A DNA stretch of 64,000 nt from Eledone cirrhosa (Eukaryota): positions 30,814,001 to 30,878,000 of the forward strand of contig OZ024745.1 in the NCBI GenBank assembly GCA_964016885.1. The letters run 5' to 3'. A program made the translations under genes and the position numbers. Below, one piece after another: positions 6,500 through 44,460 of the stretch. Positions within the stretch are counted from its first letter, which is position 1. Every line of letters starts with the position of its first letter. Under the pieces are notes generated by a model. The model was given only the letters and a program-made list of their open reading frames with translations. It made no database searches and had not been told where the DNA came from.

Positions 6500-6740
6500 T
6501 GATTGGCGTTCCACTGAAGAATGTGGGGAAGTTCAAGTATCTCTGAGTTGTTTTCACGAGTGATGGAAATTAGGACGCTGAATTAAATGCAAGAATAGCA
6601 GGAGCTGGTGCAGCAATGCGCTAACTGCAACATTCAGTCATCAGAGTCAGGGAAGCAGTTGTAAAGGCCAAACTCGCTATCTTCAATTAAATATTTCTGC
6701 TAACTCTTATATATGTTCATGAATCGCTCGTATACGGCCA
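6500..6740 (+). pseudogene. RTE-type LINE RT thumb-region fragment
   Basis: Translates to LKNVGKFKYL*VVFTSDG..DAELNARIAGAGAAMR*L..KAKLAIF, a typical RTE motif, with stops. Confidence 0.75.
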
Positions 6741-6783
6741 TTTATCGCTCGTATACAGGAAACTGACTGGTCAGTCTGCTGAT

Positions 6784-6857
6784 ATGCAAATCTGGCTAAT
6801 CGGTGGTTCTGCTAATATGCAGATCTGACTGATCAGCCAATCTGCTAATATGCAAAT
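6784..6857 (+). promoter_or_regulatory. Three tandem octamer-like motifs upstream of a hammerhead
   Basis: CTGCT(G/A)ATATGCA(A/G)AT repeated three times. Two contain a perfect ATGCAAAT (6784-6791, 6850-6857). Confidence 0.45.
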
Positions 6858-6934
6858 TAGGCCGATCAGTCACTGTTTATTTTTGAAAATAGCATATATT
6901 TTCACTAGCTCTGACAGTTTGGCAGGTGAAGAGT

Positions 6935-6984
6935 GAGCTGTACTGATGAAGGGTGATACCCAGAAACATTAATGTCTGCAGTTC
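6935..6984 (+). ncRNA. Type I hammerhead ribozyme (solo relative of the 474-bp unit)
   Basis: GAGCTGTA-CTGATGA-A-GGGT gat ACCC-A-GAAA-CATTAATG-TC^TGCAGTTC. Helix I 8 bp, palindromic helix III ACATTAATGT, extension TTGGCAGGTGAA/TTCACATGCCAA. Confidence 0.85.
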
Positions 6985-7102
6985 TGTTCACATGCCAACA
7001 CAAGAGCAAGAATGAAGGGTTCATTCTACTGACATGGCTATAAAATTGAGGCTTGTTTGCATAGTTGCAAACGAATCGAATGTTATTATTAATATTCGAA
7101 AA

Positions 7103-7289
7103 TAGGGCGGTGAATTGCCAGTATCGGTAGAGGGTCGGGTGCCATGCTTTGCAGCACAGTTACGTCCCTTTACGGACTGGGTTAAAATCCCACCGAGGTT
7201 AACTTTGCCTTTCATCCTTACGGGGTCGATAAAATAAAGTACCAGTAATGTACTGGTTAATTGCTGGCCTTGTGCCAAAAGTAGAAACA
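7103..7289 (+). mobile_element. SINE family 1 with 18-bp target-site duplication
   Basis: ATTATTAATATTCGAAAA at 7085-7102 and 7290-7307. Confidence 0.85.
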
Positions 7290-8336
7290 ATTATTAATAT
7301 TCGAAAAACTAAAATTAAATTTATTGTATTCAGCCATGTAGAGCGAAAATTTTCTTATTTCTTCGAATTATTTTGTATCAAGCTTTCGCAGATTAGCTTT
7401 AAAGACAATAAGAATTCCTCCCAACAATTGCCAAAAATTTCAATTACTGATCTTATTAGAGTTATCTCCCTTTTGTTTTTGTTGAAATGTCTTTATTTTT
7501 TATGATTTATATTTACTGAAAAATTAAATTATTAGTTTTAGAGTTATCTCTCTTGCACTTTTTTCTTTTCTTTCTTTTTATCATGCTTATCTGACAAACA
7601 TTTTAAATACTGATCATATTAGAGTTGTTTCCCTTGTTCTTTTGGTTTTTGCTTCTTTCAATTTCTGTAATTATATTTGCTAATTTCAATTATTCATTTT
7701 ATTAGACTTAATTCCCTTGCATTTTCATTTTTTTTTTCTTTTTTCATTATCCCACCAGATATTAAACACTCTTAGATGCACCTTTTGTTTAATAACGGCC
7801 TGGATAATTTCAGTTAATCAAAATGTTCACCTCATTACATTTACATAAGTGAGTGCCTACCATATACATGCACATTATAATACTGACACGAGGTCATATC
7901 TCTGCTAGTCAAAAGAAAGTTATTTTCTTTTCTCATAGACAGAAGGCCACGTCTCTCTCGAGGGAGTCTTCACTTAACAGAATCGACCGCATGTATTTGA
8001 AACCACGTAGTAAAATTACAACTGTTTTATAATTTGCACTTTCATCAAATTTGTTTTATTCATACATACTTATGAGTTTCTTGCAGTTTGTTTGGAATGG
8101 TAAAATTTCCAAATCCATCAGTAATGTTTCTAGATCTTCACGATCACATCATCTAGATGAAGTGAATTTCGTGGTCACTGCTGATATCTTATGCCATAAA
8201 CACGTAAACAAACCACAATAGACGAATGTGATTCAAAGAATAATCCCAAACGTGTATGTACATATTCACTGATACTAACATACATACATACATACATACA
8301 TACATACATACATACATACATACATACATACATACA

Positions 8337-34566: not shown

Positions 34567-37500
34567 TAAATGTAAGTATGCATGTATACGTACATACATA
34601 TATGTATACAGACGTACAGTAGCATGCACATATATATATATATATATACATATATACATACATATGCATACAGGTACACATACATATATGCACGTATCAG
34701 TTTAGCGGCGCTTATTATAACGTCGCTTTGTTCGTTTGTAAACAAACTGAAAAGCCTGAATTTATGCCATACGGTGTTAAGGCAACCACGTCACCTTTTT
34801 GTTCAACACTGACACAGGAACGATGTACTAGTTTCAAGCTTGTTAGCTATCATCAGCACCGTTTACCCATCTGCCAGATAGTTGAACGTTCGAAAGTATA
34901 TACTTTCCTTATGAAAATTAACGGCTGAGCAGCCTAATTTGCATATTGAGTGAGTTAAATCGGTCAGGCATACCGAAAACGATAAATTGAAACAAAATGA
35001 AAACGAAATTTCATTTCTCACTCTTAGTATGGCACTTACTTAAATGTAAGTATGCATGTATACGTACATACATATATGTATACAGACGTACAGTAGCATG
35101 CACATATATATATATATATATACATATATACATACATATGCATACAGGTACACATACATATATGCACGTATCAGTTTAGCGGCGCTTATTATAACGTCGC
35201 TTTGTTCGTTTGTAAACAAACTGAAAAGCCTGAATTTATGCCATACGGTGTTAAGGCAACCACGTCACCTTTTTGTTCAACACTGACACAGGAACGATGT
35301 ACTAGTTTCAAGCTTGTTAGCTATCATCAGCACCGTTTACCCATCTGCCAGATAGTTGAACGTTCGAAAGTATATACTTTCCTTATGAAAATTAACGGCT
35401 GAGCAGCCTAATTTGCATATTGAGTGAGTTAAATCGGTCAGGCATACCGAAAACGATAAATTGAAACAAAATGAAAACGAAATTTCATTTCTCACTCTTA
35501 GTATGGCACTTACTTAAATGTAAGTATGCATGTATACGTACATACATATATGTATACAGACGTACAGTAGCATGCACATATATATATATATATATACATA
35601 TATACATACATATGCATACAGGTACACATACATATATGCACGTATCAGTTTAGCGGCGCTTATTATAACGTCGCTTTGTTCGTTTGTAAACAAACTGAAA
35701 AGCCTGAATTTATGCCATACGGTGTTAAGGCAACCACGTCACCTTTTTGTTCAACACTGACACAGGAACGATGTACTAGTTTCAAGCTTGTTAGCTATCA
35801 TCAGCACCGTTTACCCATCTGCCAGATAGTTGAACGTTCGAAAGTATATACTTTCCTTATGAAAATTAACGGCTGAGCAGCCTAATTTGCATATTGAGTG
35901 AGTTAAATCGGTCAGGCATACCGAAAACGATAAATTGAAACAAAATGAAAACGAAATTTCATTTCTCACTCTTAGTATGGCACTTACTTAAATGTAAGTA
36001 TGCATGTATACGTACATACATATATGTATACAGACGTACAGTAGCATGCACATATATATATATATATATACATATATACATACATATGCATACAGGTACA
36101 CATACATATATGCACGTATCAGTTTAGCGGCGCTTATTATAACGTCGCTTTGTTCGTTTGTAAACAAACTGAAAAGCCTGAATTTATGCCATACGGTGTT
36201 AAGGCAACCACGTCACCTTTTTGTTCAACACTGACACAGGAACGATGTACTAGTTTCAAGCTTGTTAGCTATCATCAGCACCGTTTACCCATCTGCCAGA
36301 TAGTTGAACGTTCGAAAGTATATACTTTCCTTATGAAAATTAACGGCTGAGCAGCCTAATTTGCATATTGAGTGAGTTAAATCGGTCAGGCATACCGAAA
36401 ACGATAAATTGAAACAAAATGAAAACGAAATTTCATTTCTCACTCTTAGTATGGCACTTACTTAAATGTAAGTATGCATGTATACGTACATACATATATG
36501 TATACAGACGTACAGTAGCATGCACATATATATATATATATATACATATATACATACATATGCATACAGGTACACATACATATATGCACGTATCAGTTTA
36601 GCGGCGCTTATTATAACGTCGCTTTGTTCGTTTGTAAACAAACTGAAAAGCCTGAATTTATGCCATACGGTGTTAAGGCAACCACGTCACCTTTTTGTTC
36701 AACACTGACACAGGAACGATGTACTAGTTTCAAGCTTGTTAGCTATCATCAGCACCGTTTACCCATCTGCCAGATAGTTGAACGTTCGAAAGTATATACT
36801 TTCCTTATGAAAATTAACGGCTGAGCAGCCTAATTTGCATATTGAGTGAGTTAAATCGGTCAGGCATACCGAAAACGATAAATTGAAACAAAATGAAAAC
36901 GAAATTTCATTTCTCACTCTTAGTATGGCACTTACTTAAATGTAAGTATGCATGTATACGTACATACATATATGTATACAGACGTACAGTAGCATGCACA
37001 TATATATATATATATATACATATATACATACATATGCATACAGGTACACATACATATATGCACGTATCAGTTTAGCGGCGCTTATTATAACGTCGCTTTG
37101 TTCGTTTGTAAACAAACTGAAAAGCCTGAATTTATGCCATACGGTGTTAAGGCAACCACGTCACCTTTTTGTTCAACACTGACACAGGAACGATGTACTA
37201 GTTTCAAGCTTGTTAGCTATCATCAGCACCGTTTACCCATCTGCCAGATAGTTGAACGTTCGAAAGTATATACTTTCCTTATGAAAATTAACGGCTGAGC
37301 AGCCTAATTTGCATATTGAGTGAGTTAAATCGGTCAGGCATACCGAAAACGATAAATTGAAACAAAATGAAAACGAAATTTCATTTCTCACTCTTAGTAT
37401 GGCACTTACTTAAATGTAAGTATGCATGTATACGTACATACATATATGTATACAGACGTACAGTAGCATGCACATATATATATATATATATACATATATA

Positions 37501-37836
37501 CATACATATGCATACAGGTACACATACATATATGCACGTATCAGTTTAGCGGCGCTTATTATAACGTCGCTTTGTTCGTTTGTAAACAAACTGAAAAGCC
37601 TGAATTTATGCCATACGGTGTTAAGGCAACCACGTCACCTTTTTGTTCAACACTGACACAGGAACGATGTACTAGTTTCAAGCTTGTTAGCTATCATCAG
37701 CACCGTTTACCCATCTGCCAGATAGTTGAACGTTCGAAAGTATATACTTTCCTTATGAAAATTAACGGCTGAGCAGCCTAATTTGCATATTGAGTGAGTT
37801 AAATCGGTCAGGCATACCGAAAACGATAAATTGAAA
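34567..37836 (-). mobile_element. Left arm: ~6.9 tandem copies of a 474-bp hammerhead-containing unit (ribozyme on minus strand)
   Basis: Exact 474-bp period (ORF track repeats at 34582, 35056, 35530...). HHRs at 34819-34863, 35293-35337, 35767-35811, 36241-36285, 36715-36759, 37189-37233 and 37663-37707. Confidence 0.95.
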
Positions 37837-37888
37837 TTTGTTTCAATTTATCGTTTTCGGTATGCCTGACCGATTTAACTCACTCAAT

Positions 37889-37896
37889 ATGCAAAT
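37889..37896 (+). promoter_or_regulatory. Octamer motif ATGCAAAT, present in every 474-bp unit
   Basis: Perfect octamer starting 88 bp before CTGATGA. Context is conserved with 6847-6869. Confidence 0.45.
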
Positions 37897-37969
37897 TAGG
37901 CTGCTCAGCCGTTAATTTTCATAAGGAAAGTATATACTTTCGAACGTTCAACTATCTGGCAGATGGGTA

Positions 37970-38014
37970 AACGGTGCTGATGATAGCTAACAAGCTTGAA
38001 ACTAGTACATCGTT
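37970..38014 (+). ncRNA. Type I hammerhead ribozyme (representative of 12 copies)
   Basis: AACGGTG-CTGATGA-T-AGCT aaca AGCT-T-GAAA-CTAG-TA^CATCGTT. Helix I extends over 37946-38032 (ATGGG/CCTGT, CTGGC/GTCAG, GTTCAAC/GTTGAAC). Predicted cleavage after 38007. Confidence 0.88.
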
Positions 38015-40215
38015 CCTGTGTCAGTGTTGAACAAAAAGGTGACGTGGTTGCCTTAACACCGTATGGCATAAATTCAGGCTTTTCAGTTTGTTTACAAACG
38101 AACAAAGCGACGTTATAATAAGCGCCGCTAAACTGATACGTGCATATATGTATGTGTACCTGTATGCATATGTATGTATATATGTATATATATATATATA
38201 TATGTGCATGCTACTGTACGTCTGTATACATATATGTATGTACGTATACATGCATACTTACATTTAAGTAAGTGCCATACTAAGAGTGAGAAATGAAATT
38301 TCGTTTTCATTTTGTTTCAATTTATCGTTTTCGGTATGCCTGACCGATTTAACTCACTCAATATGCAAATTAGGCTGCTCAGCCGTTAATTTTCATAAGG
38401 AAAGTATATACTTTCGAACGTTCAACTATCTGGCAGATGGGTAAACGGTGCTGATGATAGCTAACAAGCTTGAAACTAGTACATCGTTCCTGTGTCAGTG
38501 TTGAACAAAAAGGTGACGTGGTTGCCTTAACACCGTATGGCATAAATTCAGGCTTTTCAGTTTGTTTACAAACGAACAAAGCGACGTTATAATAAGCGCC
38601 GCTAAACTGATACGTGCATATATGTATGTGTACCTGTATGCATATGTATGTATATATGTATATATATATATATATATGTGCATGCTACTGTACGTCTGTA
38701 TACATATATGTATGTACGTATACATGCATACTTACATTTAAGTAAGTGCCATACTAAGAGTGAGAAATGAAATTTCGTTTTCATTTTGTTTCAATTTATC
38801 GTTTTCGGTATGCCTGACCGATTTAACTCACTCAATATGCAAATTAGGCTGCTCAGCCGTTAATTTTCATAAGGAAAGTATATACTTTCGAACGTTCAAC
38901 TATCTGGCAGATGGGTAAACGGTGCTGATGATAGCTAACAAGCTTGAAACTAGTACATCGTTCCTGTGTCAGTGTTGAACAAAAAGGTGACGTGGTTGCC
39001 TTAACACCGTATGGCATAAATTCAGGCTTTTCAGTTTGTTTACAAACGAACAAAGCGACGTTATAATAAGCGCCGCTAAACTGATACGTGCATATATGTA
39101 TGTGTACCTGTATGCATATGTATGTATATATGTATATATATATATATATATGTGCATGCTACTGTACGTCTGTATACATATATGTATGTACGTATACATG
39201 CATACTTACATTTAAGTAAGTGCCATACTAAGAGTGAGAAATGAAATTTCGTTTTCATTTTGTTTCAATTTATCGTTTTCGGTATGCCTGACCGATTTAA
39301 CTCACTCAATATGCAAATTAGGCTGCTCAGCCGTTAATTTTCATAAGGAAAGTATATACTTTCGAACGTTCAACTATCTGGCAGATGGGTAAACGGTGCT
39401 GATGATAGCTAACAAGCTTGAAACTAGTACATCGTTCCTGTGTCAGTGTTGAACAAAAAGGTGACGTGGTTGCCTTAACACCGTATGGCATAAATTCAGG
39501 CTTTTCAGTTTGTTTACAAACGAACAAAGCGACGTTATAATAAGCGCCGCTAAACTGATACGTGCATATATGTATGTGTACCTGTATGCATATGTATGTA
39601 TATATGTATATATATATATATATATGTGCATGCTACTGTACGTCTGTATACATATATGTATGTACGTATACATGCATACTTACATTTAAGTAAGTGCCAT
39701 ACTAAGAGTGAGAAATGAAATTTCGTTTTCATTTTGTTTCAATTTATCGTTTTCGGTATGCCTGACCGATTTAACTCACTCAATATGCAAATTAGGCTGC
39801 TCAGCCGTTAATTTTCATAAGGAAAGTATATACTTTCGAACGTTCAACTATCTGGCAGATGGGTAAACGGTGCTGATGATAGCTAACAAGCTTGAAACTA
39901 GTACATCGTTCCTGTGTCAGTGTTGAACAAAAAGGTGACGTGGTTGCCTTAACACCGTATGGCATAAATTCAGGCTTTTCAGTTTGTTTACAAACGAACA
40001 AAGCGACGTTATAATAAGCGCCGCTAAACTGATACGTGCATATATGTATGTGTACCTGTATGCATATGTATGTATATATGTATATATATATATATATATG
40101 TGCATGCTACTGTACGTCTGTATACATATATGTATGTACGTATACATGCATACTTACATTTAAGTAAGTGCCATACTAAGAGTGAGAAATGAAATTTCGT
40201 TTTCATTTTGTTTCA

Positions 40216-40261
<46 letters not shown>

Positions 40262-42796: not shown

Positions 42797-42953
<157 letters not shown>

Positions 42954-43252
42954 TATCCCCCTTGCTTCTGCCGGGCACCGCCGGGTGGTGTTAGCTGCCA
43001 GTGTGTTATTCATAGCTATGGTTTTCTAAATGTTTATTTATAAACATACCGTATTTCTTTAGAAACTCGAAATTCAAATACATAGTTGTATATAACTATG
43101 TTAGAAGCTAAATCCTAATTCTATTCTATTATAAGTTGTGCCAACTTATATAGCTTCATATGCACATGAGATAATTATCTCATTTACACAGACGAAAAAA
43201 ACTATATATTTTCGCCTGTTTTCAAAGTCGGGCAGTTGCAAGAACGGGAGAG

Positions 43253-43296
43253 ATCGTCCTGACGAGAACCAGTCGAGTTCGAAATGCATCGACTAT
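43253..43296 (+). ncRNA. Second copy of the same hammerhead, 343 bp downstream
   Basis: Identical core. 3' strand of helix I is GACTAT (one mismatch). Confidence 0.88.
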
Positions 43297-43644
43297 TGTC
43301 CACAATGCGTCTGCCGGACACTGCCTGGTGGCGTTAGCCAGCAAGACAAGATCACAAACGAGGATGTGCTTGGAAGATCCATTGCCAACCGTCAACAAGG
43401 GCAAAAAGACAGAAGAATTCAGCTACCAGGGAATGTCCTACTGCAAAATCAACAACAAAATTTATAAAAATAACAACAACAACAACAACAGCAATGACAA
43501 CAACAAATACAATGGTAACAACAACAGCAGCAATAGCAACAACATCAGCAATAGCAATGATGTCAAAATCACAATAACAAGTGAACCTGTTTCCAGTAAA
43601 GAAACACATGATAAACAGAACTATACAAATATTAACTTCTCCTA

Positions 43645-44460
43645 TCCCCCCTCCTCACTTCACTGCCCTATTACAATCTAATAAGAACACCTCTACCTGG
43701 AGATTAACATGCTAGAAATAGCAACCAAATCTCCCCTCCTCACTTCACTGCCCTATTACAATCCAATAAGAACACCTCTACCTGGAGATTAACATGCTAG
43801 AAATAGCAATCAAATCTCCTCTCATCACTTCACTGCCCTATTACAATCCAATAAGGACACATCTACCTGGAGATTAACATGCTAGAAATAGCAACCAAAT
43901 CTCCTCTCATCACTTCACTGCCCTATTACAATCCAATAAGGACACTTCTACCTGGAGATTAACATGCTAGAAATAGCAACCAAATCTCCCCTCATCACTT
44001 CACTGCCCTATTACAATCCAATAAGAACACCTCTACCTGGAGATTAACATGCTAGAAATAGCAATCAAATCTCCTCTCATCACTTCACTGCCCTATTACA
44101 ATCCAATAAGAACACCTCTACCTGGAGATTAACATGCTAGAAATAGCAACCAAATCTCCCCTCATCACTTCACTGCCCTATTACAATCCAATAAGAACAC
44201 CTCTACCTGGAGATTAACATGCTAGAAATAGCAACCAAATCTCCCTCCTCACTTCACTGCCCTATTACAATCCAATAAGAACACCTCTACCTGGAGATTA
44301 ACATGCTAGAAATAGCAACCAAATCTCCCCTCCTCACTTCACTGTGCTATTACAACCCAACAAGGACACTTCTACCTGGAGATTGACATGCTGGAAATAA
44401 CAACCAAATCACTTCACCGTTCTATTACAATCCAACAAGGATTGCCTGGAGAATTGACAT
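43645..44460. repeat. 85-bp minisatellite, ~9.5 copies
   Basis: CACTTCACTGCCCTATTACAATCC recurs at 43741, 43826, 43911, 43996, 44081 and 44166, degenerating at the right end. Confidence 0.95.

Follow-up and report, generated by a model that had tools for sequence, protein, structure and literature searches.

At positions 6735 to 7369 of the window analysed here (the whole 64,000-nucleotide stretch of Eledone cirrhosa contig OZ024745.1), a hammerhead ribozyme motif stands behind a conserved octamer block. This raises the question of what kind of unit the two belong to, how such units spread, and what the octamer contributes. An earlier note had described the locus, with an extent of 6780..7016, as a diverged solo relative of the units in an array elsewhere in the window. 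That interval falls within the element, but the element itself spans 6735-7369 and is split by a SINE. The reading as a relative was partly borne out; missing from it were both the class of the element, which we take to be a non-LTR retrozyme and non-autonomous Penelope-like element, and the match with host U6-type promoters.

All features of the window copy given here lie on the forward strand. Its first part, 6735..7101, is a 5'-truncated copy of a family that we call A (unit length 437-438 bp); counted from the hammerhead cut it extends from -241 to +125, and this segment (L001, 1461-1827) is 96% identical to another natural copy. The SINE, foreign to the unit, occupies 7102..7289 between the two halves of a 17-bp target duplication (7085-7101 and 7290-7306) and has 17 further matches within the 64-kb window. 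The 3' remainder, 7290..7369 (+109 to +187), contains both positions at which family members end (+143 and ~+180) and a T-run at +168. The window copy has no (TA)n at its end, no ORF of 130 aa crosses 6735-7369, and the 1-kb bin that holds the copy has a GC content of 0.385. To the left, at 6570-6734, is a broken reading frame, which we take to resemble the end of an RTE-type LINE. The same SINE family is found at about the same family A site in 7 of 67 loci with differing truncations (window 7102-7289, L019, L023, L027, L276, L297 and L298), and this repeated insertion may reflect a target preference for the ATT-rich stretch of family A.

Three 33-bp repeats, common to family A, fill 6775..6857 and carry octamer-like sites at 6784 (exact), 6817 (ATGCAGAT) and 6850 (exact). 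The 12-mer TATGCAAATTAG at 6849..6860 recurs letter for letter in host U6, MRP and tRNA-Sec genes, at -76 to -79. An ATCAGT-type motif at 6865..6873, seen in family A only, resembles the -57 element of host U1/U2 genes; it is weak, its profile score being matched by 3-5 in 10,000 random positions. A TATA-like box, CATATATT, occupies 6893..6900, beginning 43 bp past the octamer start; it has the same place in families A-D and a weak profile score (top 2.5% of positions). Judged from this spacing, transcription would start at 6924, the A of a C|AG ~30 bp past the TATA-like box, which overlaps outer helix I. A descriptor scan places the type I hammerhead at 6919..6998, with helix I pairing 6935-6942 with 6977-6984 and extended by outer stems, the core CTGATGA at 6943-6949, helix II at 6950-6962, GAAA at 6963-6966, helix III at 6966-6975, and a predicted cut after C6976, exactly where the earlier note had put it.

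The comparison with the array unit was likewise reproduced: 6847-6869 matches 37886-37908 at 21 of 23 positions, the octamer precedes CTGATGA by 93 bp here and 88 bp there, and the A-A mismatch at the base of helix II and the TGGCAG in outer helix I were both recovered. Homology of the octamer block to the array unit is longer than had been noticed, reaching 59 bp at 75%. The palindromic helix III, offered as part of a common design, is present in the window copy as ACATTAATGT but fails as a family trait, since 2 of the 30 family A loci have a perfect palindrome; the majority form, ACATTAGTGT (24 of 30), is self-complementary only via G-U. The TTAG after the octamer, which lifts the match to 21/23, is found in one of these 30 loci, and TCAG in 22. 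The perfect helix III palindrome and the TTAG are private changes of the window copy. It is extremely implausible that the host has exapted this locus as a selected regulatory RNA: apart from the intact core nothing specific speaks for it, and the copy is 5'-truncated, SINE-split, ~4-5% diverged from its sisters, and broken at a pair in the outer part of helix I, where it has G and 23 of 24 readable loci have C.

How good is the ribozyme? The core elements CUGANGA, GAAA and NUH are present in type I order, and the pattern used finds the core unaltered in 29 of the 30 loci of family A. Across seven representatives, base pairs 1-6 of helix I, 2-4 of helix II and 1-3 of helix III are intact without exception and covary, most showing 2-4 pair types, in a count taken over representatives that are related to each other and with a descriptor that itself demanded the inner pairs. 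In the predicted fold of the window copy (z = -1.8) helices I and II are formed and the core is mispaired. A local Rfam scan returned no hammerhead match at the window copy, and on the array unit (family B) it gave a sub-threshold HH9 match at 18.5 of 52 bits; Rfam matches over the whole window (150 of 275 listed) were rejected as microsatellite-driven miRNA noise. We sampled 600 kb of the genome as 60 evenly spaced 10-kb stretches from three contigs, and this sample contains 31 hammerhead motifs, with none in its three shuffles. A linked pattern of 12-mer, 66-96 bases, core and GAAA, which omits most of family A, has 26,296 exact matches genome-wide and none in a reversed control. Because shuffles and reversed control are both empty, the motifs are not due to chance. 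By the linked pattern, the refuting condition proposed earlier, that no other genomic sequence would join the octamer block to a hammerhead at this spacing, did not hold.

The window copy is anything but solo. A search of the 3.0-Gb genome gave 1,634 first-look candidates, and the best 40 scored are the window copy itself and 39 further full-length matches, 95-96% identical. Family A occurs at five loci in the 600-kb sample, which corresponds to ~25,000 loci genome-wide (95% range 8,000-58,000). The 31 sampled motifs fall into six sequence types. An exact octamer precedes the core by 88 bp in B, 99 bp in C2 and 100 bp in D, and family C of the window has a one-letter octamer variant 99 bp before its core; in the 600-kb sample, types E, F and G have no octamer. 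Compared pair by pair, families A, B, C, C2 and D are 43-62% identical (81% for the C/C2 pair), and the octamer block and the core are invariant or nearly so across them. Three of the 100 listed linked-pattern matches lie outside the known families (L309-L311). We considered these as extra intact families and rejected them, none of the three passing the helix I test; since in L311 helix III is still palindromic and helix II largely kept, we read them as decayed relatives. A pattern scan of metagenomes gave 91 matches, none with hammerhead geometry, and thus no evidence outside this genome.

The earlier suggestion of an old, selected family whose structure is kept without sequence is therefore apt for the superfamily, given that A, B, C/C2 and D, at 43-62% identity, keep the octamer and covarying helices, and that decayed relatives exist. 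It does not suit the window copy, which is an ordinary high-copy member and not a relic. The selection is most simply understood as acting on the self-copying of a mobile element, and not on a host function.

Several of these families are arranged in tandem. The family B array, 34567..40221, consists of 7 + 5 identical 474-bp units placed head to head, so that it has no single strand; its two ends, at +259 and +318, differ by 59 bp and are both joined to (TA)n. The identity of all 12 units includes the length of an internal (TA)n, and the unit holds its own target-like microsatellite. Family D forms a run of 30 units. Twelve identical units in one inverted insertion and 30 units of D fit rolling-circle copying, which for the B array, a single insertion, is the simplest reading; local amplification or an assembly effect is the alternative. 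Family C is present as a partial tandem at 42910..43300 on the forward strand: its cores, at 42916 and 43259, recur with a period of 343 bp, and the second is preceded at 99 bp by the octamer variant ATGCACAT. Nearby, at 43644-44410, are nine copies of an 85-bp tandem repeat with 95% identity.

Outside the octamer-bearing families, family E has 11 tandem 310-bp hammerhead units with no octamer (L138:281-3381, minus strand). It shows AAACCAGT, TATAAG and, ~260 bp ahead of the putative start, a match to the distal motif of host genes, with a weak profile score, and is possibly a U1/U2-type variant. Types F and G (L113, L130, L147, L116) have a short helix I and a long helix II, stand in inverted pairs, and look like typical Penelope terminal motifs.

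As for the class of the elements, the unit is short, low in GC and non-coding, with a type I hammerhead and no LTR or ORF, all traits of non-LTR retrozymes; a further trait of that class is found in family A locus L024 and in families B, C, D and E, and is absent from the window copy. Abundance, insertion marks, linked families and covariation together lead us to place the elements in this known class. It is very probably a Penelope-type enzyme that moves them, to judge from the marks left at their insertion sites. We mapped 66 family A segments in 37 loci (30 from the genome search and 7 met elsewhere). They form partial tandems and head-to-head inversions with a 5'-truncated arm, at (TA)n targets. 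In 36 of the 66 segments the end is joined to (TA)n: 20 at +141 to +148, 15 at +166 to +181 and one at +100, giving two 3'-end positions ~35 bp apart, and where a locus has arms in both orientations (21 loci), one end is short and the other long in 16 cases. Penelope-like elements are described with partial tandems and an inverted truncated arm (PMC3846280; 10.1101/2021.04.23.441226) and with a 30-40 bp tail on one end (10.1101/2021.04.23.441226), which in the anole element has been traced to two internal reverse transcriptase (RT) start sites (PMC11167929). The short and long ends of family A fit both this tail and the two internal starts. Read depth is 7.8e5 at the 3' end and drops to ~2e5 over ribozyme and promoter (one run, kind unrecorded), a gradient that 5' truncation predicts.

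GIY-YIG domains with a Neptune-type cysteine motif (the clade name follows 10.1101/2021.04.23.441226) are abundant, numbering 10,595 candidates, of which 150 were scored, and several of these elements end in (TA)n. Inspected by eye, their ends (L061-L090, ~450-1200 bp past the GIY-YIG domain) show hammerhead-like motifs that have a U3-A8 core variant and a palindromic ACCGGT helix III; in L090 the core reads CUGAAGA and lies downstream of CCAAT and TATA boxes. The 30 of the 10,595 loci compared with 1.5-kb flanks share no sequence with A or B apart from two nested insertions, which counts against the Penelope reading. It counts as well against the view that our elements are orphaned pseudo-LTRs, the 5'-truncated ends of autonomous Penelope-like elements and not separate units. 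That view draws on the location of hammerheads in Penelope pseudo-LTRs (PMC4209133), on the truncation gradient and on the TATA boxes of pseudo-LTRs (PMC3846280). We consider it quite improbable, because the 10 family A copies that run past -410 enter another unit upstream and not an ORF, and because B and D are pure arrays of units.

The 5' ends of family A bear on whether the ribozyme cuts. Of 45 segments, inverted or unselected, a first 12 end between +28 and +140. Of the 33 left, 13 stop at +1 to +27, and then 11 of 20 within the next 141 bases. The stop rate just inside the cut is thus 3-7 times that on either side (p ~3e-4), in a junction list that was transcribed by hand and in which some fragments were placed by judgement. 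One unit upstream the pattern recurs, 8 of the 13 main copies that reach -410 stopping at -411 to -432 (6/10 + 2/3). In a second set of 37 loci, out of 40 scored matches, only two start at -8 to +3, though this set excluded starts just inside the cut. This pile-up would point, indirectly, to ribozyme cutting; it could instead come from RT stalling at helix I, and the anole element inserts in vitro with no need for cleavage (PMC11167929).

What, then, does the octamer block do? In the host, three U6 loci, U6atac and MRP share TATG(C/G)(A/T)AAT(T/G)AG at -76 to -78 together with a TATA box at -30, and two tRNA-Sec genes, examined as a test after the profile was built, have the exact 12-mer at -79. 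Over loci judged intact, with L157 and L158 counted once, the 12-mer at -76 to -79 marks 7 of 7 type-3 (Pol III) genes and 0 of 8 U1/U2 loci; the latter share TCA(G/A)T at -56 to -58 instead. Eleven further U6/U6atac matches with no promoter layout and mostly repeat or microsatellite flanks were set aside as probable retrocopies, a less clear one among them, U6_C2, having an octamer at -275. By position, the octamer 12-mer of type-3 genes (L155-L161, L307-L308) sits at -77 and the TCAGT of Pol II snRNA genes (L151-L154, L173-L178) at -57; TATA-like boxes are found in both classes, and a distal TTACCTCCCTT-like motif lies at -255 to -286 in many. The RNase P RNA gene (L159, G000:C24:12935784-12936173) has U1/U2-type and distal motifs and no octamer, unlike MRP, and may be transcribed by Pol II.

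The elements share much of the host type-3 layout. The 11-mer occurs 18 times in the 600 kb (1.6 expected); 13 of these 18 are in the elements, 11 being followed by an intact core and two belonging to family B copies with a changed core. All of A, B, C, C2 and D have a TATA-like box behind the octamer at a spacing of 41-43 bp, the box being absent in one B2 copy, and a C|AG ~30 bp past the box; this CAG belongs to helix I as well and may be kept for the RNA fold. We think it likely that the block is a promoter, and the layout suggests that the elements would bring their own rather than rely on read-through transcription. A general U1/U2-type element in the families was rejected, as its score is notable in family A only and weak or absent in B, C and D. 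The helix I 3' strand of C and E resembles the TTACCTCCCTT-like distal motif of the host, which may reflect ribozyme constraints.

It is improbable that the block is no promoter at all, with units transcribed by host read-through and the octamer kept as a DNA or RNA recognition site or as an open-chromatin enhancer. The spacing and orientation of octamer and TATA-like box are fixed in families only 43-62% identical, and the two-part layout is that of the host genes. Still, the 12-mer differs little from a generic POU site, so that likeness to U6 need not mean shared function, and family E spreads with no octamer. Retrozymes also seem promoterless in the accessible part of a review, which proposes host read-through for them (PMC7761336).

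As to the polymerase that would read the promoter, octamer-plus-TATA Pol II promoters exist in vertebrates, and together with the tighter spacing, the lack of the CCT that follows the 12-mer in host genes, the position of family B ends past T6-T9 runs and the TATA boxes of Penelope pseudo-LTRs this leads us to favour Pol II, tentatively and at somewhat short of an even chance. That the promoter is read by Pol III is possible but rather doubtful. In that case a true U6-type (type 3) promoter would have been taken from a host gene, short RNAs would terminate where the first strong T-run occurs (+168 to +178 in A), and unit-length templates would arise by leaky read-through, an account to which we would give equally modest credence. 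The identical 12-mer, its TTAG/TGAG alternation common to the elements and host type-3 genes, the split of 7/7 against 0/8 and the G that host genes and families A, B and D have in front of the TATA-like box all agree with it. Host U6 terminators, moreover, are T7-T10 (3/3), exceeding the T4-T6 runs found in A and D, and in family A the first T-run falls at the long 3' end. A Pol III promoter is cited for a hammerhead satellite of schistosomes (PMC2220036). However, the octamer-to-TATA spacing is 41-43 bp in every family and 46-48 bp in the host, and in insects Pol III spacing is nearly fixed (PMC1761439). Five of the 14 family B ends listed lie beyond T6-T9 runs, though such runs can lengthen after insertion. 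We had considered the 3' ends as Pol III terminators, a reading that is unneeded once internal RT starts, which account for these ends by themselves, are allowed.

Hammerhead, family structure, insertion marks and promoter-like module are all backed by sequence, and the life cycle set out here is our reconstruction from them. The element is probably a non-autonomous Penelope-like retroelement (a non-LTR retrozyme) that carries its own upstream-type promoter. The octamer, as a site for a POU factor, and the TATA-like box would start transcription ~20 nt ahead of the ribozyme core. Where copies stand in tandem, the RNA would continue through the promoter and hammerhead of the next unit, and cleavage would free an RNA of unit length, promoter sequence included, that probably circularises. 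A Penelope-type RT/GIY-YIG protein would then nick (TA)n, with cDNA beginning at the two internal sites ~35 nt apart. More than one round of copying would return the promoter to its place upstream of the ribozyme, and copies that stop at the cut or earlier would be promoterless dead ends. Ordinary retrocopying loses an upstream promoter; a unit running from hammerhead to hammerhead holds that of the next unit, so multi-round copying restores the order, and the long family A copies do show the promoter before the ribozyme. Against a carried promoter stand the 11-unit tandem that family E makes without any octamer, the weak TATA-like score, a spacing 4-6 bp below that of the host, and the host CCT behind the 12-mer, which the elements mostly lack. 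A more speculative pair of extensions, to which we attach a modest probability, is that a gene-external U6-type Pol III promoter drives this class of retroposon, being kept inside the cut, circularly permuted unit and rebuilt by rolling-circle Penelope copying, or that the conserved 4-6 bp shortening turns the module into a Pol II promoter, so that T-runs are read through.

This would make the element of a known kind, the new features being the promoter-like module shared with host U6-type genes and unusually clear Penelope traces. Metazoan non-LTR retrozymes, as far as the accessible parts of the sources describe them, have the same type I hammerhead with a weak, self-complementary helix III and a short, low-GC, non-coding unit (PMC7229834; 10.64898/2026.07.22.740005); they too occur as monomers, dimers and arrays, with Penelope-like elements proposed as both mobiliser and origin. 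Tandem type I hammerhead repeats are expressed as circles, in mussel among others (PMC7229834), a palindromic helix III and cleavage by dimers have been described (PMC4209133), and an origin of retrozymes from Penelope pseudo-LTRs has been argued, with one of nine tested dimers cleaved (10.64898/2026.07.22.740005). Family B has a U-U at the helix II base, as does an axolotl retrozyme family. Our elements differ in their conserved promoter-like module, which retrozymes seem to lack (PMC7761336), in their Penelope tail and inversion marks and in their unit length of 437-474 bp. The Neptune and Poseidon clades of Penelope-like elements share the partial tandems, the inverted 5'-truncated arm and the 30-40 bp one-end tail (PMC3846280; 10.1101/2021.04.23.441226; PMC11167929), as well as AT-rich or (TA)n targets and a hammerhead near a TATA box; ours have no ORF, a long helix I in place of the minimal form, and no homology to the 30 autonomous loci sampled.

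Host U6-type promoters have the same TATGCAAAT(T/G)AG, AT-rich spacer and TATA-like box; apart from spacing and CCT, the module differs in lying inside a mobile unit that would itself be transcribed. The promoter of newt satellite 2 reportedly includes an octamer as well. Newt and schistosome hammerhead satellites are cited with internal promoters (PMC2220036), that of satellite 2 being of the snRNA type (Coats et al. 1994, as cited in PMC2220036). It is cited as Pol II, whereas the motif here marks host Pol III genes and comes with a TATA-like box, and the U1/U2-type motif is seen in family A only. Among cephalopods, 235 hammerheads were counted in a squid genome and left at that in the accessible text (PMC6962438), and the word 'ribozyme' is nowhere in the available part of an octopus repeat annotation (PMC13282606); PMC10886601 and PMC13652810 provide context only. 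In the literature available to us, mostly from outside subscription journals, we found no description of an octamer, U6-type or snRNA promoter module in hammerhead repeats or in molluscs.

These results bear on how retrozymes are transcribed and mobilised in animals, where the accessible part of a 2020 review names Penelope-like elements as candidates only. Tens of thousands of copies in this genome combine Penelope tail and inversion marks, a 5'-junction excess at the hammerhead cut and a U6-type promoter-like module. The work also defines the U6-type and U1/U2-type promoter motifs of the host, which would be useful for guide RNA expression in this animal.
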